Notes: a model not told the origin generated them from the letters alone. 64,000 bases of DNA from an uncultured Planctomycetia bacterium (GCA_964572255.1 CAZNEE010000002.1:210942-274941), one strand, 5' to 3'; positions 39,708 to 64,000 are shown, numbered from the stretch's first letter. A program made the numbers and translations.

Positions 39708-39723
39708 CAAGGAGGCATTTCTA

Positions 39724-42700
39724 TTAAGCAGATTCTACAAACTTTTTCAGGTTCGCGTAACGCTGGATAAGTTCCTGTTTGTCGTACTTCTCAGGCGGAT
39801 CTAACAGCGAAAAGATCAAAACTCTGGCTTCATCGGAATTTTCCGCTTTTATGTTAAGATCCTCAAGCATCGCCTTGGGCATCATTTTTAAAACGTGGTT
39901 ATTGCGCTTAAGGTAGTAATAATTCAAAAGCGCCAATGTAACTATTTCAGCAAGCGGATAATATACGTTTGAGAAAGAATATTCCCCGCTTGAGCTTTCA
40001 TTAATGTATGTAGCATATACGTTTTCATTGGATTCCATCCTCTCAAGATCTCCCCTTCCATCGGCTAATGAGAATACGAAAATTTCCGAATTTTTCTCCT
40101 TTATATATCCTTCAAGTTTTTTGGGGAGTTCTTTGGTCCGTCCCTCCTCAATGATCAGATTTTCAAGGAACGTCTTGAATTTTTTATCTTTCTTAAGTTC
40201 GTCAAAGATCTCCATGAGTTTAGCGCTTTGCCATCCGCCTATTTTTTCATCAAAAGCAAGCACCACTTTCTTTCCGCTTAAAAGCATCGAACGGACCGCT
40301 TCGCCTAGATTCCACCCCAACTCTTCAGGAACCCTGAGATCCCGAAGGATCCCCACATTCTCCTCTTCCACATTTTTCTCTTTTATTGGCGGGCTTTGTA
40401 CTTGTGGGGTGTCCCTTCGAGGACCGTCCCCGAGTTCGGTTAAGCTTTTACACATCTTTTCACTTGTGGTATAAAACCGCACAATTGCCTGCTGTTTTCT
40501 ACTCTCTCTGTTCCTCTGCCATTCTTCCAAAAGTTTGTCGTCTTTATATATGCGGCAATTAATTCCACGTAATTGAGTAAAATCTAAAACCCCTAGCAAG
40601 TCCTGATCTGAGACCTCTCTCCCTGTCCTGATAAAATTATCGATCAGATCAAGGGGCAAAATGATCTCAAAATCCCCATCTTTGGAAGCATCGCATAAAC
40701 CTCTTATCGCTTTTTCTATGCATCCGCCGTAATCTGAAATAGTGTAAAAATAATAACCGCTTATAATGACCCTTTTTATTCCGTCCAGTTTACTCCTAAG
40801 GATCTTTTCAGCATATCCATGCAGATCATCGGGATTTATACTTTGCGAGATATCAATGATTTCTCTTAAAATATTCTGTCGTGTCAATTTGCCCTTTACA
40901 CTTTTTTCCTTTTCTTTCTTTTTTTCATCAGTAAATCCATGAACATTCATCCAAAGAACCTGGTCGTTACCTATTTTTACTGGTGAGGTCTGTGCTTGTG
41001 GGGTGTCCCTTCGAGGACCGTCCCCAAGTCCGGTGATAGGCAGGCGGATAATAAAATTCGTCCATTTGCCGGGTTTGCTTTCGACGTCGATAGTGCCTCC
41101 GCAGCGTTTTTCTATATTTTCCTTCGCTATTGCAAGACCCAAACCGGTACCGTTAGGTTTGGTTGTAACGTAAGGATCGAATATCCTTCCTATCACATCA
41201 GATGGTATGCCTTCCGAGTTATCCCATAGAGAAATTTCCACGAACTTTCCTCCGCCGGTGACATAGGTTTTTACGATAAAAAAGCGTTTTTCTTCGGGCA
41301 AAGCCATTAAAACATGATAGGCATTCATCATGATATTCAATAGCGCACGCGACAATGCGGCTTCGTCAGTATTTATTAACACGTCTTTTTTGCCAAATTC
41401 TGTTTGTAAAACATAATCTTTACATCCCGAAAAATGTAAAGTTGACCTAATAACTGAATCCAGGCTCACTTCCCTCTTCTCGCGCCTGGATAAAGGTAAA
41501 AGTTCCGCCAGGATATTCTTGGCCAAAGTTAATGAATTGACAACATTTGTCACGAAAAAATCCTTCTCTTTCTTTGTCTTTTCCCTGTCAGGCAATCTGT
41601 CAAAGAGATCATTTAAAGTATCCTCCAAATGTTCATGCCCGAAAACACTCTGCGCTTTTTTCGCGATCTTCATGGCTTTTGCTGTAAGTACTCTATAATC
41701 TTTTTCCTTATAACTTTCTTCAGTAAATTCAACGACTTCATCGGAAAAAGACATTATTTCCTCGAATGAGGCGTCAGAAAATCCGTGTTTTTCAAAGGTA
41801 TTTTCCGGATAGGCAAGAGCGTTTAAACAATTTTTTACGTCATGCAATACGCCGCTTAAATTTTTAAGCACCGCAATACCCGTTCTATCCCCGGGAGTCA
41901 GTTCCCTCTCCTTGTCCAGGACCATCTCATCGGACAACACCTTGATCAGCTGAAGATAATATTTAAGTCCGGCCGGTATTTTTTCCCGATTCGCGGTGAA
42001 TCCCGGACCCAGTTTATTGATCTCTGACTGCAGGCGACCGGTATCATATTCGCCTACTACCGGGCTAAAGATCAGTTGAGGAAGAATTAATATGTTGCCG
42101 ATAGATGAAACCGCGCCTTCCGCCCCTGCTTTAAGCGCTCCAGCGATCTGGCTTTCATCGCCCTGAAAAGTCCTTATGACTTTTGCATAACTCTCTAAGA
42201 GGTTCAGATCTCCCGAGCTGTCTTTTACTGCGATTATCCTGTTTTTGAGCTCTTGAACAATTTTCGGTTGGATATTACGCCCTTTAACTTTATGGATTGC
42301 CGGGTTATTGTAAAGCACTAACGGCAAGGAAGACTTGACTTTTTTCATGTGCTCGGATATTTCACCATTACTTTTCAGGTAATATAAAGGGGCTAAAACG
42401 ATTGCATTAATATGCGGAAACTCCTCTATTTCCTTAATATTTTGAAGCGTTTCTCTTTCTGTATCGCCTGTTACATTGGCAAAGATAACAAGCCTTCCCC
42501 TTGATTCTTCAGCGAATATTTCTATAGCTTCCAGTCTTTTTTTGTTGGAAAGATCCGTAAATTCGCCCGTTGATCCCATAACAAGTATTGATTTAACGCG
42601 GTTTGATATCAGGTAGTTGATAAGTTGTCTTATCCCGGTTCTATCTATCTCGATCGTTCCGTCTTTTTCCATAAACGGCGTGACAACTGGAACTATGTTC

Positions 42701-45700: not shown

Positions 45701-47838
45701 TTTAAATCGAGATGTTTGCGGTTTACATGATCTTTTTCGGCGGCGCGTTCAACCTCGAGCCGGTATTGTCCCATGGGGAATTTACTGCTCTTAAAATAGA
45801 ACGGACCTTTGGCTTCGAGCAATTTTCCTTCATCAAGAATATTTCCCTGGCCTGAGTCGCCGGGGTCATGATCATTTTTATCCTTACCCCGTCCCTTTAT
45901 AAGAGGTGCCGCGACAATCATCATTAAAATAGGTATTAGAACTGTCGCGATTAACGAAAACTTAAATATTCCGAATAACATAAATATCCCGCCGGATACA
46001 CCCGCAACGCCAAAAAGAAAAGTAATCATGGCGGAACCTTTTTCTGATCCTCCCGGCTTATTATTATCTTCCTGTTTTGCCTTATTTCTTCTTTCTTTCT
46101 CACGCTCTATTTCTTCCTGCCGGATCTTCCTGAAAGCCTCTTCAAGGCCCATTGCCTCTTTTTTCTTGGCAGCCGCCCGCTTCTGTTCTTTTTTCTCTTT
46201 TTTCCTCAGTCCTCTTTCGATCCTTTTCTTTCTGGCCTCATAAAATGCGCTGATGATCTCGCCGGGCTCCTTACCCAAATCCTTCTTCTCCCAATTAAGC
46301 ACATCCTCCAGAGCGCTTAAACTATATGCTTTGGATATGCCCGTGACAATACTGGCCGCATGCCTCCATTTGGCAGCCATGTCATGCGCCTTTGCCGTAA
46401 GTCCTCCCCGCTCTATGTATTTTGCCAGGACCTCAGAATTTATGATCTTCAGCTTTTCGAAGGCCCTTTCAAATTCTCTTTTGCTTACATAACATAAAAG
46501 AAGTTTTATAAAGCCGGGTAAAATGTGCCGCGCATGGTCCTTGCTCTCCTCAAAATAAAGCTTTATCAAAGTTACGGCATTATCGAACATCCTATCCGCC
46601 CTATCAAAATAACTTTGCTGGACAAAAATATAAGCAAGGCGTGTGTTAACTCTTACAACATGCCCTATGGCCGCATCCCTTACCTCTTTGATGTCTCCAT
46701 ATCTGATCAACAGTTCAAACGCCGCCTTTGCCGTGTTCTCTGCCTTGTCCAGATACACCTTGTCCTTCTCTTTCAGCCATTTATTACGGAAAGGGTACGC
46801 CAGTCGATCATATGTTTTTATCAAATGCTGGATATCTTCGACGGTTTCGTCCGGTTCAGCGGGATCCCCAGGCTTGATATCCCTGTATCTGGTCAATATC
46901 TCAAATGAGTTGTTTGCCGCGGATTCCGCCTTGATCAAATATGTATCATCCTCTCCGGCTACCCATTTATTGAGGAAAGTATGCGCCAGGGCATTGTAGT
47001 TTCCTATGATATACTGAATATTTTTGGCGGAAACTTTCGATCTGTCAAAACTTTCCATAAGCATGTCTGACGTTCTTGCAACACGTAGAGCTTCAGCGAT
47101 ATTCCCTATATTAAGGAAAACGTTCGCTAATTCGTTATGGAGAGATACTGCCCGATCAATATGCCGCCCGATCACTTCCGGTGTTCTATCCCGAAAATCC
47201 TCTAATATCCCGACCAGGATATCGCTTGACTGTTTTGCTTTATAAAATTTGCCTTTGGAAAGATGCTCCTCCATCTGTGTCAGTAGCTCGACGATGTCTT
47301 CCTCTATTTCTTTACTATCATACTTATTGATGGTTCTATCTGTTGCGTTTTTCTCTTCAAAAATTTCCTGCGCGTTATCTTCTTCTCTTTCAGCTTCTCT
47401 TCTTATCGACACGGCATTTTCATCGTCAGGATCTATCAGCGCTTCGTACTGCCATGAATATTTTTGATCATTCCCGATATCATACTCAATGGTGCAGGGA
47501 ACTCTTAATTTTCCCTGATCTTCACCCTTTTCATCAAAACGCAGGTGAAGCATTACATCTTTGCCGTTATGGGTGAAAACCGGGAACAGATGATCTCTGG
47601 CATCCCTAATATTAAAACTGTTCTTTTTGAGGGATTTCATAAGGCCCCTTAAATGGAATTCAATGAGAGCTTTGTGTCCGATCGCAGGATAAACTAAGGG
47701 ATTGGATACGCTCTGGACCTGAAGAGAATATTTCCTCCCGGAAGCAAGATCAGGATCCGCCCAGAGGATATTCTGGCAAGAGAACGTGATCACAAGCAGG
47801 ATCGCTATGATTTTTACGAATATTTTTCTTCTTCCCAT
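39724..47838 (-). CDS. Giant mosaic membrane protein (2704 aa): signal peptide, helical TPR/Sel1-like repeats, Lys/Glu-rich coiled coil, 2-TM hairpin, DapA/N-acetylneuraminate-lyase-family aldolase domain, histidine-kinase-type ATPase (HATPase_c) domain, and tandem C-terminal modules separated by a GDGPRRDTPQ linker
   Basis: One uninterrupted 8115-nt ORF. N-terminus MGRRKIFVKIIAILLVITFSCQNILWA is signal-peptide-like. TM hairpin MITFLFGVAGVSGGIFMLFGIFKFSLIATVLIPILMMIVAAPLI sits at ~45890-46030. Aldolase domain IVPVVTPFMEKDGTIEIDRTGIRQLINYLISNRVKSILVMGSTGEF...VLYNNPA...IIAVKDSSGD at ~41850-42740. ATPase N, G1 and G2 boxes LLNIMMNAYHV / WDNSEGIP / GTGLGLAIA at ~41040-41400. Separated from the downstream giant gene by 4 nt. 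Confidence 0.85.
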   Translation of the reverse strand: MGRRKIFVKIIAILLVITFSCQNILWADPDLASGRKYSLQVQSVSNPLVYPAIGHKALIEFHLRGLMKSLKKNSFNIRDARDHLFPVFTHNGKDVMLHLRFDEKGEDQGKLRVPCTIEYDIGNDQKYSWQYEALIDPDDENAVSIRREAEREEDNAQEIFEEKNATDRTINKYDSKEIEEDIVELLTQMEEHLSKGKFYKAKQSSDILVGILEDFRDRTPEVIGRHIDRAVSLHNELANVFLNIGNIAEALRVARTSDMLMESFDRSKVSAKNIQYIIGNYNALAHTFLNKWVAGEDDTYLIKAESAANNSFEILTRYRDIKPGDPAEPDETVEDIQHLIKTYDRLAYPFRNKWLKEKDKVYLDKAENTAKAAFELLIRYGDIKEVRDAAIGHVVRVNTRLAYIFVQQSYFDRADRMFDNAVTLIKLYFEESKDHARHILPGFIKLLLCYVSKREFERAFEKLKIINSEVLAKYIERGGLTAKAHDMAAKWRHAASIVTGISKAYSLSALEDVLNWEKKDLGKEPGEIISAFYEARKKRIERGLRKKEKKEQKRAAAKKKEAMGLEEAFRKIRQEEIEREKERRNKAKQEDNNKPGGSEKGSAMITFLFGVAGVSGGIFMLFGIFKFSLIATVLIPILMMIVAAPLIKGRGKDKNDHDPGDSGQGNILDEGKLLEAKGPFYFKSSKFPMGQYRLEVERAAEKDHVNRKHLDLKVYFEDTFSGRSILAGFLEMQIAEDNLFILGWGGTLNYPELIGDFEKYRKGGFISRMLPFYDALYGYYNRLVENDSVHGKQVELILREAEKLQLEDDEEYIRIYLKCLGKNFEGDTVALAINEFISSYIPYGATVTFRVRHDLTVKSLAEGVKFEDTGFGRLFAANGFEFISERANTVSLKKTDNPLAGFRVKVEWLDEDRLGPYRVKTEEKKEDELLALAKRSFQSKKTSRVIGSLYPRYYVYEFAKALVEKDMDLSWAFETLYDLLEDVSDPEVREMVFATGIALAGAGIYPSYAFQTLRKIFRQFPTKTKEAELVDINDKRFFREIIQRQSNRHDRLLAIEDVLEGFIRIKKGLIDRIVSPPDKTAATHGLIDSYGTRRDIDNLAEILSEFEGKIKQQSVLSLAISLLNKRNVYPLNVYRVLRDILSELMNSDERKDAVLIIGKIYEEYAEEFIRTNEIFEDLDLEGLASGTQAYIKLLIFDEVINHTATGEFMEQIRNEVIPALRAVESISRQYPAMGMDMQVKVGRAGIIFEDAIEGVILTNYFSNVKTEHAMDKSGFKGRRDYFLKVPPTVYPIFSLMVNKLFRMGIIKHQYDYTLNFDGDYLKEASFLSVCLFFCFLPHKLRIVPSVADYKNVDSKAALFPGVARRPGVDAWTGKILDGPRKGAQTSFFHSVFASLIVSYSDDKSFLMEREVNLFELDIERNFLLVTGVAGLLEEYGVMDEGLKKIYLDNKSRIMKFLINRFRISREDIPNLFPETGAGLQYTSNGSSLGKVHQLMRQLKEYFRNNPAAYKEFQDIVNEMADQIKWHIFPEGSLSAAVIEHASAGEWHEVKKAIISAVFGHKDQKLALILLDAANYPEKDKILGALAKESDDASSSDGEKDPAKPDGSPLGIYNIMQKNFKDRRVSADSIRKKTKGRAADGHLSLDVVKRDLGTLVYLGFAERSVTDKGVIIYRATDLSPPLSGEDPLSILDSLGTRPTSIEKRAAKAKLVYNQNIVPVVTPFMEKDGTIEIDRTGIRQLINYLISNRVKSILVMGSTGEFTDLSNKKRLEAIEIFAEESRGRLVIFANVTGDTERETLQNIKEIEEFPHINAIVLAPLYYLKSNGEISEHMKKVKSSLPLVLYNNPAIHKVKGRNIQPKIVQELKNRIIAVKDSSGDLNLLESYAKVIRTFQGDESQIAGALKAGAEGAVSSIGNILILPQLIFSPVVGEYDTGRLQSEINKLGPGFTANREKIPAGLKYYLQLIKVLSDEMVLDKERELTPGDRTGIAVLKNLSGVLHDVKNCLNALAYPENTFEKHGFSDASFEEIMSFSDEVVEFTEESYKEKDYRVLTAKAMKIAKKAQSVFGHEHLEDTLNDLFDRLPDREKTKKEKDFFVTNVVNSLTLAKNILAELLPLSRREKREVSLDSVIRSTLHFSGCKDYVLQTEFGKKDVLINTDEAALSRALLNIMMNAYHVLMALPEEKRFFIVKTYVTGGGKFVEISLWDNSEGIPSDVIGRIFDPYVTTKPNGTGLGLAIAKENIEKRCGGTIDVESKPGKWTNFIIRLPITGLGDGPRRDTPQAQTSPVKIGNDQVLWMNVHGFTDEKKKEKEKSVKGKLTRQNILREIIDISQSINPDDLHGYAEKILRSKLDGIKRVIISGYYFYTISDYGGCIEKAIRGLCDASKDGDFEIILPLDLIDNFIRTGREVSDQDLLGVLDFTQLRGINCRIYKDDKLLEEWQRNRESRKQQAIVRFYTTSEKMCKSLTELGDGPRRDTPQVQSPPIKEKNVEEENVGILRDLRVPEELGWNLGEAVRSMLLSGKKVVLAFDEKIGGWQSAKLMEIFDELKKDKKFKTFLENLIIEEGRTKELPKKLEGYIKEKNSEIFVFSLADGRGDLERMESNENVYATYINESSSGEYSFSNVYYPLAEIVTLALLNYYYLKRNNHVLKMMPKAMLEDLNIKAENSDEARVLIFSLLDPPEKYDKQELIQRYANLKKFVESA
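40386..40439. repeat. Copy 1 of a ~54-nt direct repeat (31-nt identical core CTTGTGGGGTGTCCCTTCGAGGACCGTCCCC) inside the 2704-aa gene; it encodes the linker LGDGPRRDTPQ
   Basis: About 48 of 54 nt are identical to the copy at ~40981-41034 (~595 nt upstream on the plus strand), and both copies are in the coding frame. Coordinates are ±2 nt. Confidence 0.7.
40981..41034. repeat. Copy 2 of the ~54-nt direct repeat inside the 2704-aa gene (encodes TGLGDGPRRDTPQAQTSP)
   Basis: See copy 1; the repeats flank a ~190-aa module that appears duplicated in tandem at the C-terminus of the protein. Confidence 0.7.
41040..41400 (-). other. Histidine-kinase-like ATPase (HATPase_c / GHKL) domain in the 2704-aa protein, preceded by a possible degenerate DHp helix containing His (FGHEHLEDTLNDL)
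   Basis: N box LLNIMMNAYHVL, D/G1 box ISLWDNSEGIP, G2 box KPNGTGLGLAIAKEN and a C-terminal GGTIDVESKPGKWTNFIIRLP; boundaries approximate. Confidence 0.6.
41850..42740 (-). other. DapA/NAL-family class I aldolase (dihydrodipicolinate synthase-like) domain embedded in the 2704-aa protein
   Basis: VTPF...DG.ID...LI..L...V..I.V.GSTGE (compare GTTGE), YNNPA (compare the E. coli DapA Tyr133 loop YNVP) and a Schiff-base lysine in IIAVKDSSGD (compare IVGIKEA); boundaries approximate. Confidence 0.6.
46550..47250 (-). other. Four or more tandem ~68-aa alpha-helical repeats (TPR/Sel1-like) in the N-terminal exported part of the 2704-aa protein
   Basis: Recurring units ...NYNALAHTFLNKWVAGEDDTYLIKAESAANNSFEILTRYRDIK... 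/ ...TYDRLAYPFRNKWLKEKDKVYLDKAENTAKAAFELLIRYGDIK... / ...NTRLAYIFVQQSYFDRADRMFDNAVTLIKLY...; boundaries approximate. Confidence 0.5.
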
Positions 47839-47842
47839 AGTC

Positions 47843-50800
47843 TTACGCGTTGGTCTTTAAGTACTCCGCTATCGCCATGTATTCTACCGTCCCGGCTGTG
47901 ATCTGCTCGGCATCCGGAATACCTAATTTAATAGTTATAATGCCTCCCGTTTTGCACCTGTTCGCAGTTTCATCCCAGCATAAAGCAAGCAGTTCATCCG
48001 CACTTAGCCGGCTCATGTCTATATTAGGAATCGATCGATAAAACTCCGCTAACTCTTCCTTATCGAATTCCAATAGCCTGTACCGCGCCAGTGAGAATAG
48101 AACGATCTCTAACAATGGATAATAAGAATCCATTCCCAGATCTTTATCATTAATTTTTGTTATGACAGAATCCGTATACGGCTTTAGACACTCGAATTCT
48201 TCATCAAGCGCTATAACTATCAGATCTTCATTCTTTACATGTTTTTGGTCTTTCATGTAATCGAGTGTCATTTCGGTGATATCGCCGGTATGGATCACGA
48301 TATTCTCCAGCCATTCCTTTAAGAGCGGGTCTTCGCTGCGCATAAGGTCGCTTAAAGCTTTCCTCACCTCATCCGCTCTTCCGTTGCCCAATCTTTTATC
48401 AATTAAAATACCGACTCTTTCCTTCTTCTGGTAAACCGCACTTTTTACCTTGGCCGCTAAGTCCTCTCCTTCCGCAATAGATCCCGGAGATATCCTTGAA
48501 CTGGCTATGAACATGCTGTTCGTAAGCCGGGGAACGGCTTTTCTTATGCTGTCCATGATCAGGTCTTTATCTGATCTTTCAATATCCGTAACTTCTTCTT
48601 CGATCAGTTCTTCAAAAGTTCCGTCAGGATGACTTATGAATATCCTGTCCCTGCCGTTCACCTTAGCTCTGTACAGGGCCTTATCGGCTCTTGTTACAAT
48701 GGGATCGATCGCTTCCTGTTCCATCTTGTTAAGCAAACTACTGTTCGCATTTTTTTCTTCCTCCGTTTCAAATGAACTTTCTTTTTCTTCTTTCTCCCTG
48801 ATCCCTCTTATAAAACTTTCCTTCTCCTTGTCCGTAAGCTGGGCTATACCCATACTCCATGAAATATCAATATCCCTGACTATTTCCTTTCCTTCTTCAT
48901 CAACAGTTGTTCCCTGGATCTCAATACTGCGTACGGTATTCAATATTTTTTCCGCCGCTTTTTTGACTTTGTCCAATTCATCAAATATTATTATCAGAAA
49001 TTCCTCTCCGCCGTATCTTATGAAGAAATCGGTCCCTCTTTTAAGCTCATCATCAACTACTGACGCGATCGCCTGGAGCACCTCATCCCCCTTGGGATGT
49101 CCGTATGTATCGTTCACGCCTTTAAAATGATCGATATCGCACATGATAGCGCACATCGGGGTGGGGTTCTGCGATCCCTTCTCTTCATCTCTTCGCTCGA
49201 AAGCGCGTATATAGCCCGGGATCTCATTAATAAGGTATCTTCTGTTATGCAGATCGGTCAATTCGTCTCTGAGAGTTTCTTCTTCTAATCTGCGGCTCTT
49301 TTCCTCAAGCTTTTTCTGCAGCTGTTTTAGCTCGGTAATATCAGTGAAAACTCCCAGCACGCCGTTTCCCAGACGCTCTTTACTTACCTGTACATGAATG
49401 GTTTCTCCCTCTCTTACGTTTGTCTCTTCCACGGATATGGCTGTATTATTCTGATAAACTCTCAAGTCATCGGCTTCATATTTTTCAGCATCATAAGATT
49501 TCCCTAGTTCAAATTTGTCTCTGATCTCGATATCGGTTAACCCCTCGACCTTTTGAGTTTCCGGATCCAGCCCCAACATGCTGTAAAACCTGGAATTCGC
49601 ATATTTCACGCGCATTTTTCTGCCGTCAAATTCTTTATAGAACACAGCCGCGGGTAAATTTTCCAGCATTGCGCCTATATACTCTTCTCCCTTTTTTATC
49701 TCCTCCATCGCCTGGATCAATTTTGTTATATCTCTAAATGATGTCAGGACTATAGTTTTGCCGTCCTTTATTATCGTGTCATCGGTTTTTGCATAGATGA
49801 TGGTGCCGTCTTTCTTTACATATCTTCTGCCTTCTTCCCTTTGCGGAACATCTTCCCCCCTTAGACGCGCTTCAAAACGTCTTCTCGCGTCTTCAACCTC
49901 ATCGGTATGCATAAAATCAAAGATCTCTTTGCCGATAATCTCATCCTCATCATATCCCATCAATTCACACCAATATCTGTTAACCTGCTTGATTATGCCT
50001 TTTTTTCTGCCGTCTTCTTCTGTAACCTCTAACACGTGGAACCCGATCGGGGAATTATCATAGAACTCTTTATATTGTTTTTCGGAAGCCATAAGCTCTC
50101 TATTTACTTCATCGAGATCTCTTGCTGCGGATCTTAATTTGTTCAGGACCCTCTGGCCGAGAACGCCTGCTATTACAAAAACAATTAAACACGCCGCCCG
50201 CAACGCAAGATTGTATATATCCGTTAAAGGAAGTAATCCCTCAAGGATATCTCCCTTATAAAAGAGATATGCGTCCCCGATAGACCTAACAGCCCAGTAC
50301 AATGCTCCAAAAATAATAGCGGCATATTTAATGCTTGATACTTTAGGCACCGCCCCTATCTCCGTAAACTGCCTTTTGTCGGAAACAAAACGCCCCTTAA
50401 CCTCTATGCCTTTTATAAGCCTCGTGAACGCTTCGTTGCCTTCTTCGGATTTTCTGTCCTGCAAACCATGTGTAAGTTTTTGGCCGCCAAAACCAAGAAC
50501 TATCTCGTTGTACTCAATAAGATTGAATTCAGATTTGTTAAGTCTTTCCGGAGGAAGATTCTTTTTAAGATAGGATATGAACTCGGCCGCTGTATAGTGT
50601 TTCCCCAGTTTCTTTTTTGCCTCATGGGCCAACAGCCTTACGCTGCTGCCGGCACCTCTTAAGAATTGATGAGGGTGAATGTCGAATTTTACCAGATCAC
50701 CATATTCATCTATCATATCGAAAGATTCCGGCACATGATATTTTTTAAGATAATCGATAATATCGTCGGCTTCACTATCCGGATCCAGATCGCCCTCTAT

Positions 50801-53800: not shown

Positions 53801-56800
53801 GATCTTGATACCGTTTTCCCGCAGGAACTCGTCCAGATTTGAGCTGTCCTTTCTGTTTCTCTTGAACTGCCTGAAAAATTCAATAAACCTCCCTATCTTA
53901 TCCTTGGGCAGTTTTATCTCATTTCCCTGAAGGAACGCGGTCAACATCCTTTCCTCGTCCTTCTTGTTCTTTAAGAGGTCCCTGATCCTCTTGATCTCGC
54001 TTATCTCGCCTTCGGTCAGCCTCTTCACCCGCTTAGAGCGGTAGCCTTCATGCGCCATCTTCTCTTCCTTGTCCAGGAAGGATTCAAGGAGCTGAAGTAT
54101 CCGGTCGTTATAATCGTCCGTGACATCGTTCTTTCTGATCCTTTCACGTTCCCGATCGAATATATTCTTTGAAGCTTTTCCCTGGCTGATAAAACCGTCC
54201 GGAGTTGTTTTTGAAACTTCGAAAATGGTCACCGTTATCTTGTTCCCCCTAACTTCACTGTCAAAGGTTTCTTCCTTGCCATGCGAAAATCTCATTCCGT
54301 CTCTCCAGCTTTCCACCAATAAAGTTACATCCTTATAATCTTTAGCGATACGGCTGAGCCTCAATAGAAATATCCCCCTTAATTCGACAGGGATAGATAT
54401 TTCCGATAATATTTTTTCAGATTCGGTATTGCGCAGTATGCCGCCGTTGAATATCCTGTAAAGTTCCATTTTAGACGGACCTTCGTCTTCAGATATTATC
54501 CGTATGCCCGGCCTGGAATCTGACCTTCTTCTGACCGCCTGGAGTTTTATTGAAAAATCAACATCCTTATGATTGCCCCACACATGATCACGCAAATTCT
54601 TATTTAGCTCATAGATCACATGCCGGGCAAGTTCCTCCCTGTTTGTGGGAGTTCTTTTGACACTGAAAAATATCTCGTATTCTGTTTTAAAGCTTTCTTT
54701 CTCTTCGAAATCAAACTTCGAAATAAACTTTTTTAATTCACCAAAAGAGTCCTGATCATTATTTACCATGTTCTCTTTACTTAATGTAAATGTTTCAAGA
54801 ATTTCTATATCCTCCCCCTCATCTTGTTTCTCTTTATCCTGAGGCTGTTCTTTTGGTTTTGACTTTTTCTTTAAGATCCATACTGCGATTAAAAACCCTA
54901 TGATCGGCAATAAGAACCCGGCATCGAAATTGACCTTTTGACCCCCCATGAAACAGCCGCCTGAATGATGTGAATGGTCACCTTCGCCCGGAGCTTTGCC
55001 CACATGGACAGTCCCGGGATAATATGAATAATCTCCGTCAGTCTGCCCGTCAGGCATCTCTGTCCTGATAGCCAGATCATAATTTCCCGAATACATGTCA
55101 GACGGAATGTTTATGATGATCGAGGATGTCGATACGCCCGGCACAAAGAATTCTTCCGATCCTATCATGATCGTGTAGCCGTCGGCTGAACCCTGCAGGG
55201 ATCCGGTGTATGGATCCCAGGTAAGCTCAAAAGTCCTGTCATTGTTGCTGGCTGTGACGCTTGTGATCTCGGGCGAGAAAGGCCTCGCATCCGTTGACTC
55301 CGCCCAATGCCGGATAGAATCAGCATTAGCATCAGATATTATAAAGCCCATATCATCCTGCCAGAAAAGCCCGCCATCCACTCCGCTGGCGTATATTGCG
55401 GAATATTTATCCCCAAAATTTGTAGGCTCAAGTTCTCCAAAAATGACCGGCCCGTCAAGCGACGAACCCCAGTTCGTCAAAGGATCCGCTATCGGGAACC
55501 AAACCTCCATATAATCATAATAATGCGGCTGGTAAAGATCCAGGCCCAGATCGGTCCAGTTGTCCATGAGCGTTTCCCTGTTCCTCGCGCCCACTGTGAC
55601 CACTGACCCCGGATCCTGATTATGTATCATCTGAACATGCAGATCCAGAAATCCGTGCACTTGCGCCATCGTCAGAGATGTCAATTCCGGTATCTCTTCG
55701 GGTTCGCTCATCACGTCCCAGGCGACTATTTCCGGACGGTCCGCGTAATCATTGACGAATTGTGCCATTAAGGCAAGTATTGCGTTGATCTTCGCGGGTT
55801 CACTTATTATGTCCGGATGTTCTCCCACAGGATTAGGGCCTTCCATGTCGATGCCGTCCGCGATCAAATAATCGTATAATACCGGCATCAATCTTATACC
55901 CAGAACATTGGCGGCTTCGATCAGGGTATCCATGTCTTCATAAACATGGGCGCTAAAGCCCGTAGGTGTACCTGTTCCGTCAAAAACTATTCCGCTTCTT
56001 AGATCACAGAATAAAAACACTCTCACAGTACAGCCCTTGAAACGATTAAGCTCCTGCAGGAGCAGTTCTCTTCTGGTAGCTAAACCTACATAATCCTCGC
56101 CATTGGCCCCGTCCCCGATATCGTAGCCGTATTCTATCCACAGGTTCGCTCCGCGGGCAAAATCAGAACCGGGCGTTAAGTTCTCGATGATCTGCTGAAC
56201 ATGATCGATCCTTTCAAGCCTTCCGTCAGTGTGATAAATAAGGGTTTCGGTCAGATCCCAGGAAGCGTCATATTCAAATGTACGGACCGTTCCGTCCTCC
56301 AAACGTTCGGTATTCAGATACATCCTCCCGTTAGCTAGATGGTAAGAAGCGCCTGCCTTATTGGTGTATTTCCTTATCGCAAACCCCGGCGTAGCTGTCT
56401 CCTGTACGACCGTTTCATGCACAAATGTCGGATCTCCCCCCGCATCATATCCCCTGATAAAGTGAATAATATCCGTGCCCGCGTAATATTCAGGTTCCTC
56501 GTAACTGCCATCAGGCCATGTTATCCTGTCGATCCTGCCGGACGTTCCGTTGCCGTAGAAATCAAAATCCTCTCTATGCACCACTGTATCAGCCAGGTAG
56601 TCATCCAGCTCATAATCAGGCGTATCGTGGTCCCAATCCTCCAAATATGTCTCTGTTTCGATAAAGCCGGACGGTGAATAGTACGTGTAATCGACCTCCG
56701 CGGCCGCAAGGACCTTGAACGGAAATAAAAGGAAAAGTACGGTGACGAGAAGCATTTTCGTGCCCGAATTCCTGAATGCCCTAAAGACCGCCTTAAAAAT

Positions 56801-59800
56801 GTTCCCTATCAATCGAAATGTCTTGGAAACTGATCTTGATAAAATCCCTGTAACCTTAAATACAAAGACCGCCGGGTAATACCATTTGAACAGGAAAATC
56901 TTATTGGCGAACATGGTCGTTGTGCGGATCTTTCCGTCCGGCTTCTCTATCGGAAATACGCATATATCGTTCGCAATGATCTCTATTGCCGCGTTGACCC
57001 TTATGTATTCCTTGGTTTTCCTGTCCTTGAACATATTCGCGTTGATCGCAAAATTCCATTTCCTGTATTTCCTTTGAATATCATCCTTTTTGAACGGATC
57101 AGGCTCCTCCAGCCACTCCTTGAGATATCTTTTGGCGGCGAATATCCTGCGTATAAGCCTTATATTGGGAATTAAAAGGATCAACGCCCCCACTCCTATT
57201 ATAAAGAGGAAAGATGAAAGCATGGACCACGCACCCGAACCTGCAATTAAAAACGGCGCTGAAAATAAATATCTATAATTCATCTTATTGAGCCTCGCCA
57301 TCTGCTTAAGGACCTTTTCATCCTTCTCATCCAGCGAATAATCTGCGGCCAGGGCTTTTATTAATTCCCTTTTCTCGCTTTGTTTAAGGTTCGCAAAATT
57401 TCCTTTATCTTTAAATCCTTCCATGACAGCATAAGTCTCATTTTTCAGCGTGCCTTTGCGCGCTATATACTCGAAATCGACCGTATCGATTATAAGTAAC
57501 AGGTCCTGCGCGGCTTTGAATAAAGGATTAGTGATAGGTTCTTTTGAAGTGGGTTCTTTCTTTGTCGTTTCTAAAAAGACTGCCATGAAAAAAGGAGCAA
57601 AATATCTGTAATAGTCGGGTGATCCCCTGACTATGTTTGCTTTTGCTTCGAAATCTTCATATGTTGAATTAAATGCCTGCATCTTGGCATCGCTGCCGCC
57701 TTTTCCTTTCGATCTTAGGTCAAGGTATCTGTCCCTGTAATCCGCCATGAGTTTGGATAATCCTTGCGCGTCTTCACACTTCCTCTTTATATAGTGCGCA
57801 AACGCAAGAGCCTGATCTTTGCTCTCCCGGGCTATCCTTTTATTCGGATGATTGATCTTATTCAGATGTTCCGGCATGCCCAGAGCGGCCTGCCTGACCT
57901 TTCTGAACTCGGGCTCTCTGACCCAGTAGGAATATGCTATCGCCTGGGCCGCGCCAGAGACGGTTATCCTTCCGGCCTTTTTCAATGTTATGAAAGGCCT
58001 GTTCGTGATCCAGCGTTCGTTGTTCTCGATCGCTTTTATCATGTCTTCAGCCAACCGCTTGAATTCCCTGTTTCTGCGATCGGTGCTCTCCCTCAATTCT
58101 TTTCTTACAAATTTAGAGTCATTATTGCGTATGCTTCCTGCCGCTTCCTGTCTTTCTCTGAGAAGTTCACCGGCATGTTTTAACACTCTTTTCGCTTTTT
58201 CTGCCAATCCTATTTCAAGTAATTCGCAGGCGGCTTTGATATATATGATCGCGAGCACCTTGACCTTTAAAGGCGATCTCTCGAGATCCTCTATGCATGA
58301 CTTTAAAGTGTTTACAAATCTTCTTTCAGTCTTTCTTCTTAATCTGACCTGCTCTCTTAAGTCCTGCATGCCGGGCAGGAAGGTATGTTTAGCTTCTTCC
58401 CGGGACTTCTTCTCTCTTTTGTCTATATACTCGGTTATCTCGGAGATCTTTTCCCTTATTCTCGGAATATTTATTTTTTCTTCATCTAATTCATAATCGA
58501 TCCTTTCGTCATACCCCCTGTAGACCTGCCATAAAAGAAAGTATCTCGCTCCCTGGTGTCCCGGATGAGCGTATCTTCGCCCGTCCTTAGGATAATATTT
58601 TTGAAAAATGTAAAAGGGCGACCATCCCTTCCAGATCTTCTTGCCGTCTTTTGCCTCATCAAAAACCCTTTTAGGGAGCCTGATCTTCTTCAGCCTTCGG
58701 GGCCTTGCTATCCTTTTCTTAAGAAGGGCAACCTGTTCGCCGGCTATCCTGTTAAGAATATCTCTGACCTTCTTATACGCTTTTGAATCTTCGTAGTTCT
58801 TTAGGTCTTCCGCCTCTTCGACCAGTTTTACCACTTCATCAAAATCCGCTTTTATCAATTTAGCGAAAGCGGGTATTCTTGCAACCGGCTGGTTTTTCTC
58901 TTTCTTTCTGTCCGTTTTTACATCCCCGGCAATTTCGTCAATATCTTGCTTCGCTGAAGCTGTCGCTTCCTTTACTTCTTCTAATAATTCCCCCAATCTC
59001 TTTTCATGTTTTCTGATCCGTCCCTGCAGATACTCTTCACGATATCTTTCATGCTTGATCCTCCATTTCAGAAGTCTTATTTTCTTCTGCAGTTCGATCC
59101 TTTCTGAGATCTTCACGTAAAGTTGGGTATGATACTCAAAGATCGTGATGAATAGATCGTTGTCTACCGGTTCTTCCCTATATAATCTTTCCATGTAGTT
59201 ATAGGGGATTTCTCTTTTTAGCTGTTCGCTTGAGACAGGAGGTTCTGACCTCCCGTAATTATTTTCATTCGCTGCATTGTTCCCCCCGGCGAAAAATTGG
59301 CATATAATAAAGAGGAAGGATAGAACAAGGGCGGGTATCATAAACCTGCCCACCGCACCTTCAGGCAAAGAACCGCTAGTAAATATTGAAGCGGCAAAAA
59401 CTGTTAAAAATCCCAAAACTCCTATGTAACTAAAACCTTTATCGGCTCTTTGCTGCTCTATTTTTTCTTCAATATTCCTTATATAAGGCTCCAATTCGGG
59501 AGCGATATCCCCTCCCAGGCTGACTATAAAATTACGTAAATGGCTCTCCAGCTTTTCTCCCGAATATTTCGGCAGTTCTTCCAAGAGGGCGATCCTGAAA
59601 TTGATATAACTCTTATGAACCACCCGTGTTATTTCCGCCATGAAAGCGGCTATCCTGTCTTTTTTCACATCATCCAAAGGCGTGCTTTTCAGAAGATCCC
59701 TGAATGCCTTGATCAATTTTTTCTCTTTTTCCGGGGACGGAAGGGTTTTGTTCGTCTTCTCTATATCGTCGTAAAAAGACTTCCATTCGGGGCCCAGTTC

Positions 59801-62800
59801 CACAAAAATTCTCTCCCTTTTACCTAACTGAAGCTCTACATCTTCCGACTCTTCTATCTTCTCTATCTTTGGCTTCTCTGATATTTTTTCTGCCGGTTCG
59901 GATTTTTCATCTTCTTCTTTCTTTATGTCTTCGATCATTATATTGAGGCGTTCTCGGATAACTTCTATCCACTCAATGGATTCCTCTTCCAACCCATCAA
60001 ATCGGGAAACCGTTCTATCGAAAACTTTTCTAAACCCTTTAAGGATATTTTTAAATTCAGGATCGGATTCCTGCAATCTTAAAAGAGTGTCCAATGCCAT
60101 ATCAGCTTGGCGTATCCATGCATCAAAATCCTTAACATCTCCGCCTGATAGCTCCTCCATCCGCGCTTTTGTATCATCCAGACTTTTACGGCTGTACCCG
60201 CCGATGCTGTCATAGAAAAAATTCATGAACAGCACGGTGATAATACTTGCTACAACAAACGATAATATTCCCGAAACAGTTATCTCCAGCATAGAATCAG
60301 CCATACCCAATAATGAAGCTATTGATCCGAGAAAAGAAGTTCCAAAAACCAGTAATGGCGTATGCACTATCCCTTTCTGTCCCCGCGCTTCGGGGTGCCC
60401 TCCCAAATCTTTCTCTGTACGAACTATCTCCTCATGCCTGATTACAATTTTCTTGGCAAAATTAGGATCTTGAAGTTTTCCCGTCAGCCAACCGTAAAAG
60501 CCTTTCATCTTGATACCGACATCAGCCAATTTAGTCTTTACATCGCTATCGATGCACCTCCCGTACTTCTCCAATGCTCTTTCTTCCTCAAGCAGGCCCA
60601 GCAATAACAACCTCTGTTTTTCCTTTCCTTGCTTGTCCTTATAAGCTGTATTATTGAATTTGTCGGTTTCCGTCTTGTGCCTATCTCTTATTTCGGGCAA
60701 ATAGAGATCTAGTAAAAATTTTCTTTCCGCAAAAAGGACCAGCAGGATCTTCGCCAAGGCGGACTTCCTGCTGGGATCGATCAATATCAACTGTTGATAT
60801 ACACTTACCTTTATATAAACATTCCCCGTATCCGCCTCTATGCATATTTTCTGCCCCGAAAAAGGCATGGTGGAATCTTCGCTGCAGATGAATATCCCTC
60901 TTTCACCCTTTTTATACTTTTCATCGCTTCGCATTTTTTCTATAAGTTGAATAGCGTCTTTAATAAACGCGAGCTGCCGCTCCAACTTATCGATCGCAAG
61001 CTTGTCTTTTTTCTCTTTCACTTTCAGAAATTCTATTTCCTCTTTTACTTCCGCAAATCCCTCGGAATTAAGGACTTCTTCGCGTAACTTATTCAAATAA
61101 GCGGGAGACAATCTTTCATCTAAAATAGTGCGCTTTTTTCCCTTAACAATAAGAGACTGAATTTCCTCGTCAAAATATGATTTCATTTGCCTTTCATAAT
61201 CATTTAAATCTCCAAAATAACGCAATACTTCAATATATTGCATTACCTTTTTCAGAATTGTAAGAAACTCTTCTTTGCCGATAGACTCGAAATCAACCTT
61301 GGTCATCTCTTCGATATCAGCCCCCCAATTATACTCTACTGCCGCTATCCCATTTTGGAGCAATTTGAACGGCTCCATTAAGGGCTCCAATTCTGTTTCT
61401 ATTTTTTCCTTTTCCCCTTCGAGGAATTTAACCACATCCTGTAAAGTTTTTTCGTCTACCTTTTCTATTTCGCCATCCTGTTTTTTATGATCCGCTATGC
61501 TAAGAGCCTCTAACAAATTAGTTCCCGCATTAGTGCCCGCAAAAAACCGGTACATAACAAACATAAGAGATAAAATAACAATGGGGACCATAAATCCGCC
61601 GCTAAACAGTGAAGCGGCAAGACCTGTCAGAAATACAGGAATCCCTATGAAGATAAACCCTTCATCGGATCTCTTTTTTCCTTTCTGTTCTCCTGCTGAG
61701 GATTCTTCCGCTTTTTTGATAGGCACGATCTTTACAACAGTCTCTACCCCTCCTCCCCAAAAATGTTTTTTAGTGATCTCGGTATCAATCCTATAGCCTA
61801 TTCTGCCCAAAGCCTCTTTTAAGATATTGAGAGTCCATATCGCGGCATCCCTCTCTCCTTGCTTTTCTATGTCTCGCAGGATCTTTTGGATGTCTTCGCC
61901 ATATTTTTTGGCATTATTGCCGAGTCTTGCGAATATTGCATAAATAGCTTCTTCCGTATGGCCCAGATATATGCCTGAGCGTAAAAAGCCGTTCCAGGAT
62001 TCAGCCCATACCTGGTCAAATTCTTTCTGATATTTAAAAATATTGTGTAAGCGCTGTTCATCCGGCGGGGCGAAAAGGATCTTATTCTTTTTCTTTTTAA
62101 ACAGGGTTAATAGAAGGTTTTCCGCATCATAGAAATTTCCGTATTTTCCCAGCATCTCAGCTGCAAACTTGAAAGCTTCATCGTTCCCATGCCCCATATG
62201 ATCCAGGGAAACCACAACCGTATCCCGTAAAGAGTTTCTTATCTTGGACCAGCCCATATTTGTTTTGGCATATTTTTTAACGATTTTTCTAACCGTTTCT
62301 TTGGCCACATGATCGTTTGCGCCTGTTAAGTTGAAAAGTAACGGATTGATCACATCCGGCCCTGATTTTGCCAACTTACCTATCTTTTCTTTATCGCTTA
62401 AAGAAGCGTCTTTAACGATATTTTCAGCGACCGTGATAAATTTCGATACTTCTTTAAACCTGTCTCTTATCTCCCTTTTACACATCTCGCCGTAAAGCAA
62501 TGTGAAAAAGAGGTCTTCATTGTTTTTCAAAACATCTTTCGCTGTCGTGTCCTTTTCGATCAAACTTACGACTCTTTTAAGGACTCTATTCCTTAACTCC
62601 TGGCCTAAACGAATCTTTTCCAGGTAATCATCATCTGGGACAGTTCCGCTTCTTTTAATTGTTCGTGCCAGGTTTGCAGCACTGGAATTGAAAGTTATGT
62701 CCAAAGATTTTAAATTTTTCAGGAATTTATCGATGATCTGGGCAATGATCTTGCTTTTATCCACCTTTTTCGAGTAAGCTATTATTCTCTCGGTTGCCAC

Positions 62801-63898
62801 GGATGACGGCAATTTTATCTTTGCCAATCCTTTTATAGCGCCGATATTCCCTTGCAACATCAGGATCGCTCCGGGCTTAAGGCCTGCTGCTTTTCCTTCC
62901 AGTTTCTCCTTGAGATCCAACTCCTCCTCGTCCATTTCTTCCGGAGGGGACATGTACGGCCAGAATATGAAAATAAGATCATATTCGGAAAAATCTTCAT
63001 CAAATATATCGCTGTCCTTATCCGCGATCTCAATATTTGATACATCAATTCCTCCTTTTCCCCCGATCTCTTTAACGCATCCTTCGCCCTCTTCTCGAAG
63101 CATATCGTTCAACTCGTAACATTTGACTTTTTTCGCATACTGTCCGAATATCAAAGCGGATTTTGCGTTACCCCCGTATCCTATCAGCACCTTACGGGCT
63201 CTTTTCGAGAGCCATTTAGCTATCATCTTTAGATGTGAAGTTTGAGGGCTTAAATATGCCCCCACTTTATCTCTTGTTTTAAAAAATGTCAGTCTTTTAG
63301 AATCCACCCCTTGTTTATAATATTTGCCTATAAGATCTATCGCTTCTTCCGGGGTGTTCGGAGCCGGATGATTCTCAAGGAAGAAATCCATCTCTTCCGA
63401 CGACAATCTGCTATGACGGCTTCTTGTAACCGTGAAAAATCTTCCTAAACTTTCCGCCTGTTCGGACGTAAGTTTTTTGTATTTACCCGTCAATTCATAA
63501 TAACCCGGGGTTTCACTGGATACATATTTAAGCATTCCTCTGCCTATAAGACTTTCCAGCCCGATGATCGTTGTTTTTCCCGTAATACTTTTTTGCAGTT
63601 TTTCTTCCATACTTTTTTTGAATTCGTAAAAATCTATCCGGCGATTCTTGAAGTATTCAAAATTCGACAAGATGAATTCAAATGTCTCATCCATGGCATC
63701 ATGCAGTCCCACAAGATAATTTTCGAATGCCGGAGTTAAAGCTTCTGCGGTATCCTCATCTATGTTCTCCTTATGGGAAAGGGTCTTTAACAAACTAAGC
63801 CATGATCCCACATCGGCTTTATGCCTTATGAATACATCCCTCAAATAAGGTCTTGGTTCGGTAAGGGCAGAGATCTGATCGGAAAGAGAAAAGACCAC
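47843..63898 (-). CDS. Giant mosaic multi-pass membrane protein (5351 aa): repeated 2-TM hairpin modules, long coiled-coil/charged regions, an exported segment with YD-repeat-like beta region + TIM-barrel glycoside-hydrolase-like domain + FN3-like domain, a Hanks-type Ser/Thr protein kinase, a periplasmic-sensor-like loop, and a C-terminal PAS-PAS-GGDEF (diguanylate cyclase) unit
   Basis: One uninterrupted 16056-nt ORF. The track start is a GTG at 63898 with an in-frame stop 21 codons upstream and no obvious Shine-Dalgarno, so the true start may be a downstream ATG. Diagnostic motifs: kinase IGSGGMCSV / ALKVMK / HRDLKPMNV / DLG / GTPEYASPE (~51850-52430); GGDEF [12 protein letters not shown] / [21 protein letters not shown] / RGTD...RYGGEEF (~48650-49270); hydrolase-like [12 protein letters not shown] and VIFGELEP (~55330-56060). 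Its stop lies 4 nt upstream of the next giant gene. Confidence 0.85.
   Translation of the reverse strand: [5351 protein letters not shown]
48650..49270 (-). other. GGDEF diguanylate cyclase domain with intact GGEEF active site and RxxD inhibitory site, containing a ~70-aa acidic insertion
   Basis: [54 protein letters not shown] (RxxD five residues before GGEEF), and the terminal [16 protein letters not shown]. Confidence 0.85.
49320..50090 (-). other. Tandem PAS domains downstream of a TM/sensor region
   Basis: [59 protein letters not shown]...KDGTIIYAK (PAS 1) and [41 protein letters not shown]...[13 protein letters not shown] (PAS 2). Confidence 0.7.
51850..52430 (-). other. Hanks-type (eukaryotic-like) Ser/Thr protein kinase catalytic domain within the 5351-aa protein
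   Basis: Glycine-rich loop [10 protein letters not shown], beta3 Lys in TIALKVMK, alphaC Glu in FLREIRYM, catalytic loop [12 protein letters not shown], DLG variant of DFG (IADLGLA) and APE-like GTPEYASPE. Confidence 0.85.
55000..55300 (-). other. Fibronectin type III-like beta-sandwich module following the hydrolase-like domain
   Basis: [76 protein letters not shown] has the FN3-like W/Y/L periodicity; it is followed by a TM helix ([15 protein letters not shown]) at ~54870-54930. Confidence 0.45.
55330..56060 (-). other. TIM-barrel glycoside-hydrolase-like domain (clan GH-A-like; candidate acid/base Glu in MSEPE and nucleophile Glu in FGELEP) in an exported segment of the 5351-aa protein
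   Basis: [17 protein letters not shown]...[19 protein letters not shown]...[21 protein letters not shown]...[26 protein letters not shown]...VIFGELEPT: the spacing of the conserved Asn/Glu-Pro and second Glu resembles GH5/GH113-type (beta/alpha)8 hydrolases. The family assignment is tentative. Confidence 0.45.
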
Positions 63899-64000
63899 TG
63901 TTTCAAGATACAGCGTTTTATTCAGCTCTTTAACTTTCCGTATTAAACGAAGATTGTGATTCAGCGCGTTAACGATAACTACTTCAAGAGGAAGTGTTAT

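Follow-up and report, generated by a model that had tools for sequence, protein, structure and literature searches.

The gene pair and its integrity

The 64,000-nucleotide (nt) stretch of DNA analysed here (GCA_964572255.1 CAZNEE010000002.1:210942-274941, deposited under an uncultured Planctomycetia bacterium), which we call the window, carries in its last part two adjacent giant genes, named A and B. They encode proteins whose interiors are mosaics of interchangeable modules, framed by a leader and a C-terminal domain that recur throughout a protein family. Gene A (39724-47838) is complete: it starts with ATG and encodes 2,704 amino acids (aa), and the exact protein is found on contigs from NCBI, JGI and ENA. 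Gene B, which precedes A, enters the window with the 3' 16,158 nt of a 19,134-nt gene (47843-64000, residues 993-6377 and the stop codon), while its 5' 2,976 nt, encoding the first 992 residues, lie outside. Both genes, like their features located below, are on the minus strand, and a spacer of 4 nt (47839-47842, GACT) separates the TAA of B from the ATG of A. Residues of B are numbered on the full-length protein.

A first-pass annotation made from the sequence alone had described two co-directional open reading frames (ORFs) with a 4-nt gap and no internal stops, and this description holds, with the strand being minus. The sizes it gave were right for A (2,704 aa), whereas the 5,351 aa and 16.1 kb assigned to B are an artefact of the window edge, the actual protein having 6,377 aa. 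Minus-strand translation from 64000 to 47846 yields 5,385 codons without a stop, and the stretch from the GTG at 63898 to base 64000, read by hand, has no in-frame stop either. Protein A was matched exactly on a 498,635-bp ENA metagenome contig on which its neighbour B is called as 6,377 aa; from residue 993 onwards, this full-length B (P0022) and the window translation agree residue for residue. With a frame open at the window edge and a 6,377-aa call, the pair therefore measures 19.1 kb and 8.1 kb. ORF lists can silently shorten edge ORFs to an internal start codon, and B had been listed from its first GTG, at 63898.

A and B are real, uninterrupted genes. Given the local base composition, a stop-free frame would arise by chance with a probability of about 1e-157 in B and 1e-79 in A, and the remaining two frames of this strand are interrupted by 366 and 569 stops. 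Neither large internal repeats (self-BLAST) nor relevant tandem DNA repeats (TRF) were found in A and B. An assembly or annotation artefact, with ordinary genes mis-joined through lost stops or a chimeric contig, would be in keeping with the metagenomic origin of the data and with the absence of known domains over some 80% of the length. Against it, A was recovered on 6 contigs and B on 7, from different runs, among them the ENA MEGAHIT assembly and, independently, the Logan assembly of SRR14699969. When codon usage was modelled on the flanking housekeeping genes of the window, the annotated frame was preferred in 51 of 51 windows of 300 codons (0.19-0.39 nat/codon, compared with 0.38 for housekeeping genes), so that codon bias is in frame throughout. 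Moreover, the leader and the C-terminal domain of the family respectively open and close each ORF, and in other organisms the same modules sit within single ORFs. The artefact explanation is effectively refuted.

A family defined by its termini

In a first BLAST against a few homologues, the first ~150 and the last ~210 residues of A matched the termini of the otherwise unrelated proteins P0011 and P0001, and the C-terminus of B matched that of A. An exhaustive HMMER profile search of 1.84 billion representative proteins with this C-terminal domain (C-domain) retrieved 380 clusters at E<=1e-3 and 261 at E<=1e-10, for proteins of 150-7,288 aa, with A and B scoring 8e-92 and 5.8e-80. None of the best 150 of these 380 hits exceeds 7.3 kaa (thousand amino acids). 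A 42-sequence profile of the same domain gave zero matches in a word-indexed search, which reflects a limit of that tool in view of the 380 clusters found by HMMER.

The C-domain, of ~215 aa and alpha/beta type, carries the motifs KKxVLAF and YYPLxEIVT and ends in RYxxLxxFLxSA. It lies at most 10 residues from the C-terminus in 149 of the 150 best representatives and is duplicated in none. In A it occupies 39727-40353 (residues 2496-2704), with an alpha/beta three-layer fold ending in ...ESA; in B it occupies 47846-48502 (residues 6159-6377) and belongs to a divergent subtype nearest to P0096 and P0072 (~1e-60). Of 149 representatives, 141 end in Ala; the final pair is -AA in 77 and -SA in 49. 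This near-invariant tail (residues 2702-2704 of A, 39727-39735; 47846-47854 in B) resembles an ssrA/Tsp/PDZ-like recognition tail.

At the other end, among the 59 representatives with 1,500 aa or more, 46 open with the same leader and N-terminal domain (N-domain). In the leader, a basic n-region gives way to a hydrophobic core and then to ..QDIVWA followed by NPD(I).., with LQVPSFF ~15 residues further on, then VPC and YEAV; the N-domain, of ~130 aa, comes directly after it. The leader of A is canonical (..QNILWADPD..SLQVQS..): encoded by 47758-47838 (residues 1-27), it reads MGRRKIFVKIIAILLVITFSCQNILWA before DPD and is signal-peptide-like, with a predicted cleavage after W-A. The N-domain of A follows at 47359-47757 (residues ~28-160) with the motifs LQVxS, VPC and YEAxI; residues 2-185 align with 33 family members, and A matches the N-domain profile at 1.6e-59. 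In B the leader is a variant, ..YDIVWAYPLD.. (WAYP), common to P0096 and P0072, and the match to the N-domain profile is weaker (1.1e-5). Searches of either terminus against Pfam, NCBIfam and PDB sequences returned zero matches, and the family is apparently undescribed in the accessible literature and HMM libraries.

A and B each begin with a leader and end with a terminal domain of their own, and they are therefore complete paralogues arranged in tandem. The presence of both family termini on each ORF excludes a single gene split by a stop as well as a fusion of several genes, including the joining of ordinary genes through lost stop codons that the first-pass annotation had named as a possible refutation.

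Mosaic interiors and their domains

Between the conserved ends, the interior of family members spans 0-7,000 aa, with modules often divided by transmembrane (TM) hairpins. A and B were compared with 150 family representatives by phmmer. Several modules of B are shared, at quite different positions in B and in the matching proteins: residues 854-1050 with P0155 and P0126, 1212-1407 and 1817-2142 with P0054, 2584-3234 with the 1,353-aa member P0071 (6e-158), 3553-3891 with P0001 and P0075, 4041-4279 with P0046, P0049 and P0128, and 4379-4527 with P0126 and P0046. By contrast, the interior of A (residues ~185-2085) matches none of the representatives. In word-indexed homologue searches, A retrieved only itself and HATPase-domain matches, and the opening 2,800 in-window residues of B retrieved one weak match and not B itself; genome and metagenome scans with the opening 400 of these residues gave no matches. 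In 15 other members, the cargo recognised by Pfam comprises S-adenosylmethionine (SAM) methyltransferases (6 of 15), GNAT, HATPase_c, PD-(D/E)XK, metallo-beta-lactamase and HD domains, as well as PALP, RidA, LOG-like, CheB, HAD, TPR, sugar transferase and sigma-70 region 4. The interiors are thus mosaics of interchangeable modules. About 80% of A and B is without a Pfam or NCBIfam domain, and thirteen segments between TM helices, as well as the termini, gave only noise at Pfam E<=1.

The most N-terminal of the shared modules of B, which ends within the window (63827-64000), may be an HD-type phosphohydrolase, an assignment that is weak: a FHDTGK...H...D pattern was seen by eye, and the best PDB-profile matches are to HD-GYP (4mcw, E=0.19) and HD proteins, at E=0.19-0.52. 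The module shared with P0071 (57275-59227, 650 aa) is helical and has neither a Pfam match (E<=1) nor a PDB match by profile search.

The module shared with P0001 and P0075 (55304-56320) is the core of a glycoside hydrolase family 5 (GH5, clan GH-A) domain resembling beta-mannanases. As a single sequence, it reached only E=0.005. A profile built from the B segment and the homologous segments of the two family members matched four GH5 mannanases at 1e-14 to 8e-19 (among them 4oou at 8e-19, 5y6t at 2e-17 and 2c0h at 3e-16), and both GH5 catalytic Glu align in B (DVMSEPEE and IFGELEP). The TIM barrel proposed by the first-pass annotation is therefore retained by profile search only, the single-sequence evidence being weak. 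Secondary-structure prediction places beta-rich parts on both sides of the barrel. The fibronectin type III (FN3) and YD repeats suggested by the same annotation are not retained: the loop segment that contains the barrel gave zero HMM matches to them at E<=1, although a YD-like motif (YEYDSDGRL-type) was seen by eye in the homologue P0001, with weak similarity in B.

Further downstream, the module at 54140-54856 (residues 4041-4279) has no PDB match by profile. The one shared by P0126 and P0046 (~53396-53842) contains a conserved DEYLLHE(I/F)LC..(L/M)GHY, reminiscent of a degenerate HExxH metallopeptidase site in which the second His is Cys.

Signalling modules come next in B, as the first-pass annotation had it. 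A Hanks-type Ser/Thr kinase (51467-52432, residues 4849-5170, with an insert of ~50 aa) matches Pfam Pkinase at 1.2e-44 (153 bits) and 4eqm/PknB in PDB at ~1e-24 to 4e-27, with the motifs GSGGMCSV, IALK, HRDLKPMN, DLG and TPEYASPE present. It is followed by two Pfam PAS domains (49325-50005) and a GGDEF diguanylate-cyclase domain (48818-49270), RGTDFFIRYGGEEF, in which the GGEEF active site is intact and an RxxD I-site is present (Pfam 1.2e-27; TIGR00254 at 112.8 bits for a cut-off of 37.4).

The kinase raised the possibility of a kinase-based anti-phage defence or conflict system. PADLOC/NCBIfam kinase models (mad6, PD-T4-6 and PglW) do match the kinase domain of B, the locus is accessory (see below), and paralogues carry nuclease and methyltransferase cargo. 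However, these matches cover the generic kinase domain only and fall far under equivalog cut-offs (MADS6, 126.7 vs 460 bits); PADLOC gave no match for A or for the first 2,800 in-window residues of B, and no partner defence genes are found nearby. We consider such a role very improbable and rejected it.

In A, two domains are firmly identified, in agreement with the first-pass annotation. A class I aldolase of the dihydrodipicolinate synthase (DHDPS)/N-acetylneuraminate lyase (NAL) family lies at 41929-42696 (residues 1715-1970); it matches Pfam PF00701 at 2.8e-30 (105.5 bits, cut-off 22.1) and, in PDB, NAL 8u8w at 1.4e-18, and keeps the motifs GSTGEF, LYNNP and AVKDSSG (Schiff-base Lys). With 99 vs 206 bits and 68 vs 382 bits respectively, it is not a DapA or NanA equivalog. 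A histidine-kinase (HK)-like module follows at 41029-41871 (residues ~1990-2270), in which HATPase_c (residues 2158-2268) matches Pfam at 1.5e-17 (64.4 bits, cut-off 26.4) with N-box and G2-box present. A candidate H-box, GVLHDVKNCLNAL, was spotted at His2005 by eye only, and alignments with histidine kinases reach upstream to ~1982-2090.

Genomic context and a variable slot between smc and cinA

On the annotated contig, ~84 kb around the pair contain co-directional housekeeping genes only. Upstream of B are found fabG, acpP, fabF, an acyl-CoA dehydrogenase gene, ETF, merR and smc, and downstream of A come cinA, ligT, recA, alaS and the his and trp operons, with lepA and lepB also on the contig. 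No secretion, pilus, integrase or transposase genes are annotated in these ~84 kb.

Within this arrangement, cinA starts 5 nt after A and no minus-strand terminator-like site occurs between B and recA. The spacer between smc and B (167 nt, AT-rich) carries TTGACA-17-(TG)TAATAT 98 nt before the ATG of B. B, A, cinA and ligT are probably transcribed as one unit from a promoter before B. The 20 nt before the ATG of A lack a Shine-Dalgarno (SD)-like motif, unlike most window genes, and with a gap of 4 nt and no SD motif for A the translational coupling of the two genes is plausible. The element before B is a near-consensus extended -10 sigma-70-type promoter (L008 9875-9903), in a region not enriched in such sites (3 vs 2.2 expected). 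As for cinA itself (39179-39718), it is of the CinA-domain-only type, with a gene call of 141 aa and a mechanical ORF of 179 aa; it and ligT overlap by 8 nt, and recA follows.

Relatives of the window show that the slot between smc and cinA is accessory and rapidly exchanging. In a Makaraimicrobium-like JGI contig (L012/L015; RecA 80%, HisD 81% and AlaRS 62% identical to those of the window), it holds two other family members: a 6,814-aa protein carrying methyltransferases, TPR and other domains, and P0096, of 1,315 aa with HATPase_c and CofD, which lies directly upstream of cinA-ligT-recA-recX-alaS-his. In L014 (RecA 80%, AlaRS 65%), a single member, at least 3,090 aa long, lies upstream of cinA. 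In L016 (Ga0163203_1000006, 5775-9993; RecA 77%, AlaRS 63%, SMC 59%), the slot is empty: cinA comes ~100 nt after smc, followed by ligT, recA and alaS. The two lineages with a filled slot are equally distant. The order cinA-ligT-recA-alaS is kept in L012, L014 and L016, and cinA precedes ligT in L017. The giants found in the slot of these lineages share their termini only, and the C-domain of B is 47% identical to that of P0096, there the downstream gene.

The first-pass annotation had regarded the pair as native chromosomal content and not an island. This stands as far as composition and strand are concerned (GC content of 0.40-0.46 for the pair and 0.41-0.47 for the flanks), and no mobile-element genes were seen near it; it does not stand for the slot, which is variable and, in relatives, filled with other members or empty.

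Host lineage and comparison with known systems

A genome scan with the leader alignment (GTDB) led to three confirmed loci, all three in Candidatus Omnitrophota metagenome-assembled genomes, and all named family members are from Omnitrophota. The 90% cluster of P0096 includes RKY43126.1 from Ca. Makaraimicrobium thalassicum, with a syntenic locus and a RecA 80% identical to that of the window. These indirect lines point to an Omnitrophota bacterium as the host of the pair, and they agree with the likeness to Omnitrophota giant ORFs put forward in the first-pass annotation.

ORFs above 20 kb were reported in most Omnitrophota classes (Seymour et al. 2023, PMC10066038). The 'Archaeovorins' of West-Roberts et al. 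2023 (10.1101/2023.11.21.568195) are described as having many TM segments with SecA-like, HATPase_c, GGDEF and glycolytic-type enzyme domains, with predicted localisations that its authors judged implausible. According to Nielsen & Lui 2026 (10.64898/2026.06.07.730766), 916 proteins of at least 10 kaa include a 'multi-enzyme metabolic cluster' class with a signal-transduction module; methyltransferase, HATPase_c, GNAT and HAD co-occur there as a module, about one TM occurs per ~370 residues and type II secretion system (T2SS) or pilus genes are frequent in the flanks. The claim that the pair was not a described system was consequently too strong, as giant multi-TM mosaics of Omnitrophota with HATPase_c, GGDEF, glycolytic-type and GH domains are documented in these sources.

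A and B resemble these giants in phylum, in their signal peptide and TM architecture, with roughly one TM every few hundred residues, in their poor sequence conservation between genomes and, together with the rest of the family, in a mostly Pfam-dark patchwork of HATPase_c, GGDEF, GNAT, methyltransferase, glycolytic-type and GH domains. With 2.7 and 6.4 kaa, they fall below the thresholds of these studies (>30,000 aa for West-Roberts et al. and >=10,000 aa for Nielsen & Lui). They further differ by the lack of SecA_DEAD, C39/S8, HEAT, GT5 and dockerin domains (Pfam); SecA preprotein-binding, glycosyltransferase, methyltransferase, peptidase, NUDIX and HEAT domains were sought in A and B at Pfam E<=0.01 for the whole proteins and E<=1 for segments, and none was found, GH being the only one shared. 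They also have zero T2SS or pilus genes within ~20 kb, and carbohydrate-import genes are likewise missing from the ~84 kb annotated. Finally, A and B are defined by the leader and N-domain and by the C-terminal alpha/beta domain, neither of which turned up in the sections consulted of the two giant-protein preprints or in a term search of one of them. From their sequences, A and B extend the known Omnitrophota giant multi-TM mosaics, the new element being the shared terminal domains.

Other comparisons are instructive. Like PknB-like Hanks receptor kinases and membrane PAS-GGDEF cyclases, B would join an exposed domain through a TM helix to a cytoplasmic kinase and PAS-GGDEF, whose catalytic and I-site motifs are intact. 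In contrast to these proteins, the candidate sensor of B, a GH5 barrel, sits within an internal loop of a chain of 6,377 aa, its kinase lies ~800 aa downstream of the TM segment and is not N-terminal, PASTA domains are missing and several outputs are carried by one polypeptide.

MARTX and polymorphic toxins have conserved ends around strain-variable enzymatic cargo and a fast turnover at a fixed locus, in which the family of A and B is alike. In contrast to these toxins, A and B have no RTX/GD-rich repeats, CPD protease, type I secretion system genes or Rhs/YD shell (HMM searches and neighbourhood); both termini are globular, and internal TM hairpins are present.

Predicted membrane organisation and possible function

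TM segments and their sidedness were approached by crude hydropathy and by the distribution of Lys and Arg (positive-inside rule). Protein A has three hydrophobic segments, namely the leader and one pair, and a weak fourth within the aldolase domain. The pair (45898-46020, residues 607-647, followed by KGRGKDK) could be a TM hairpin or one long TM. Full-length B has ~13-14 hydrophobic segments. After its leader, hairpins 1 (61535-61660, residues 1773-1814), 2 (60227-60355, residues 2208-2250) and 3 (59288-59437, residues 2514-2563) are followed by a signal-anchor-like TM (56699-56755, residues 3408-3426), rich in Lys and Arg before it and with ...VLAAA then EVD after, by a stop-transfer-like TM (54872-54928, residues 4017-4035, then KKKSKPK) and by a weaker hairpin (51263-51433, residues 5182-5238). 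Hairpins 1 and 3, with their basic N-flanks, are paralogous (5.6e-30; GFxxIGxxxFLTxxAASxF ... FMxPxxxLSxxF..FFAG), and the modules adjoining them are dissimilar; the element was not found in the other 149 family representatives, B's own two copies being the only ones retrieved. These segments and the shared modules bear out the earlier description of mosaic, membrane-threaded proteins.

The predicted extracytoplasmic loop of B (54929-56698, residues 3427-4016, ~590 aa) comprises a beta-rich, YD-like N-terminal part, the GH5 barrel and a beta-rich tail, and is the sole stretch with a clear in-out-in signature. The kinase, PAS-PAS-GGDEF and C-terminal domains are downstream of it, on the expected cytoplasmic side. 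The aldolase of A, which the first-pass annotation had counted among exported domains, shares its compartment with the ATP-dependent HK domain, on the same membrane side, and is therefore unlikely to be exported.

We favour, with moderate confidence, the view that A and B are membrane-inserted modular proteins in which an exposed GH5 loop is wired to a kinase and a cyclic di-GMP (c-di-GMP) synthase in B, with an aldolase and an HK-like ATPase supplied by A. Our confidence is much higher for what is shown directly, namely that the genes are intact, which domains they encode, that they belong to the family, that their modules form a mosaic and that the slot varies. Both proteins would be inserted in the cytoplasmic membrane, where the hairpins would tether successive nucleotide-dependent modules at the inner face. 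The ~590-aa loop of B would present its mannanase-like barrel outside, between the signal-anchor-like and stop-transfer-like helices, and the binding or cleavage of a glycan there could be relayed to the cytoplasmic Hanks kinase and PAS-PAS-GGDEF of B, with phosphorylation and c-di-GMP as outputs. Protein A would contribute an NAL/DHDPS-type aldolase and a histidine-kinase-like ATPase, and the conserved termini may serve the whole family in insertion, sorting or docking. The surface sensory and enzymatic machine imagined in the first-pass annotation would fit the GH5 loop, kinase and GGDEF of B.

Several observations weigh against this proposal. A cleavable leader would export the part downstream of it, yet most of the cargo needs ATP, GTP, SAM or acetyl-CoA; moreover, of 50 representatives with a leader, 20 lack any other strong hydrophobic segment. 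Given that hairpins keep the chain on the same side, an N-out/C-in path requires an odd number of crossings, for which crude hydropathy is the sole source. In the GH5 barrel, the Asn of the NEP motif is replaced by Ser, and the AlphaFold2 (AF2) model of the GH5 loop, built with 3 sequences, is unusable, with a pLDDT (predicted local distance difference test) of 39.5. In A, HisKA has no Pfam match. No response regulator or c-di-GMP effector is found nearby on the annotated contig. Lastly, with ~80% of both proteins devoid of recognisable domains, the named domains may not define the function.

The first two of these points would be accommodated by the main rival, in which A and B are exported multi-effector polyproteins: the leader would direct Sec export, the hairpins would enter a host or prey membrane, and cargo of cytoplasmic type, such as the kinase, GGDEF, GHKL ATPase and aldolase of A and B or the methyltransferases, nucleases and GNAT of paralogues, would act in or on the partner cell, with the termini as export, docking or processing handles after the logic of MARTX and polymorphic toxins. 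In favour of this rival are also the conserved ends with swappable cargo, the accessory and fast-changing locus and the near-invariant -AA/-SA tail, which suggests that some machinery recognises it. Omnitrophota have also been reported to be host-dependent or predatory, with giant proteins linked to attachment (PMC10066038; 10.1101/2023.11.21.568195). Yet no secretion-system, pilus or processing-protease genes exist within ~20 kb, and neither autoprocessing (CPD/C39/S8) nor RTX domains were found by Pfam. The Lys/Arg patterns at the helices of B fit a stable inner-membrane topology, and PAS-GGDEF with an I-site is typical of self-signalling. We hold this rival to be unlikely.

A somewhat less likely alternative again is that of membrane-tethered cytoplasmic enzyme scaffolds without sensing, which would bring assorted enzymes together at the inner membrane as in the 'multi-enzyme metabolic cluster' view of Omnitrophota giants, the GH5 loop being an independent surface enzyme. 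Metabolic and modification enzymes predominate in the cargo of the family, the lack of partner regulators in the neighbourhood would be expected, and the TM density (~one per 400-500 aa) fits the recipe published for giant proteins (10.64898/2026.06.07.730766). It is countered by the kinase, PAS-PAS and GGDEF with its I-site that B carries directly downstream of its only clearly exposed loop.

The membrane-inserted signalling proteins that we favour would, if they were nothing else, be a useful and incremental annotation. More would follow from a phylum-specific delivery or display system, a speculative idea to which we give a low probability: the termini would be handles for export, sorting or processing (by cleavage between VWA and NPD and by recognition of -AA/-SA), and the interior would consist of effector or sensor cassettes exchanged to track hosts or prey. 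If this were true, the smc-cinA slot would be a diversifying 'interaction locus', a new polymorphic multi-effector system would exist in ultra-small, host-dependent bacteria, and proteins of 2-7 kaa would provide a tractable entry to the unexplained Omnitrophota mega-proteins.

Giant membrane-threaded mosaics are the most conspicuous unexplained feature of Omnitrophota, and published work has focused on proteins above 10-30 kaa, which are near-impossible to align, fold or express. The leader and the C-domain give a profile for gathering hundreds of relatives of tractable size, and the filled and empty alleles of the smc-cinA slot are natural contrasts. Questions such as the cleavage of the leader, the side of the membrane on which the 'cytoplasmic' enzymes reside and the recogniser of the C-terminal tail are thereby made testable.

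Further observations

All genes called in the 64-kb window lie on its minus strand, and its cumulative GC skew shows a monotonic fall. The window holds complete his and trp operons and thr/leu genes, and the organism therefore looks biosynthetically capable and not strongly reduced. A tRNA gene (11720-11795, minus strand) is the sole Rfam match at gathering score in the window.

Among the relatives, P0001 (L003 10001-26558, ENA ERZ27250602 k141_527696) is a protein of 3,489 aa with RidA, HATPase_c, GNAT, HATPase_c and the GH5-like module. It is followed by a gene for a 1,883-aa RCC1/WD40-like repeat protein, a FecR-like gene and a CHASE2-GGDEF gene, and a POTRA/ShlB gene of two-partner-secretion type is located nearby.

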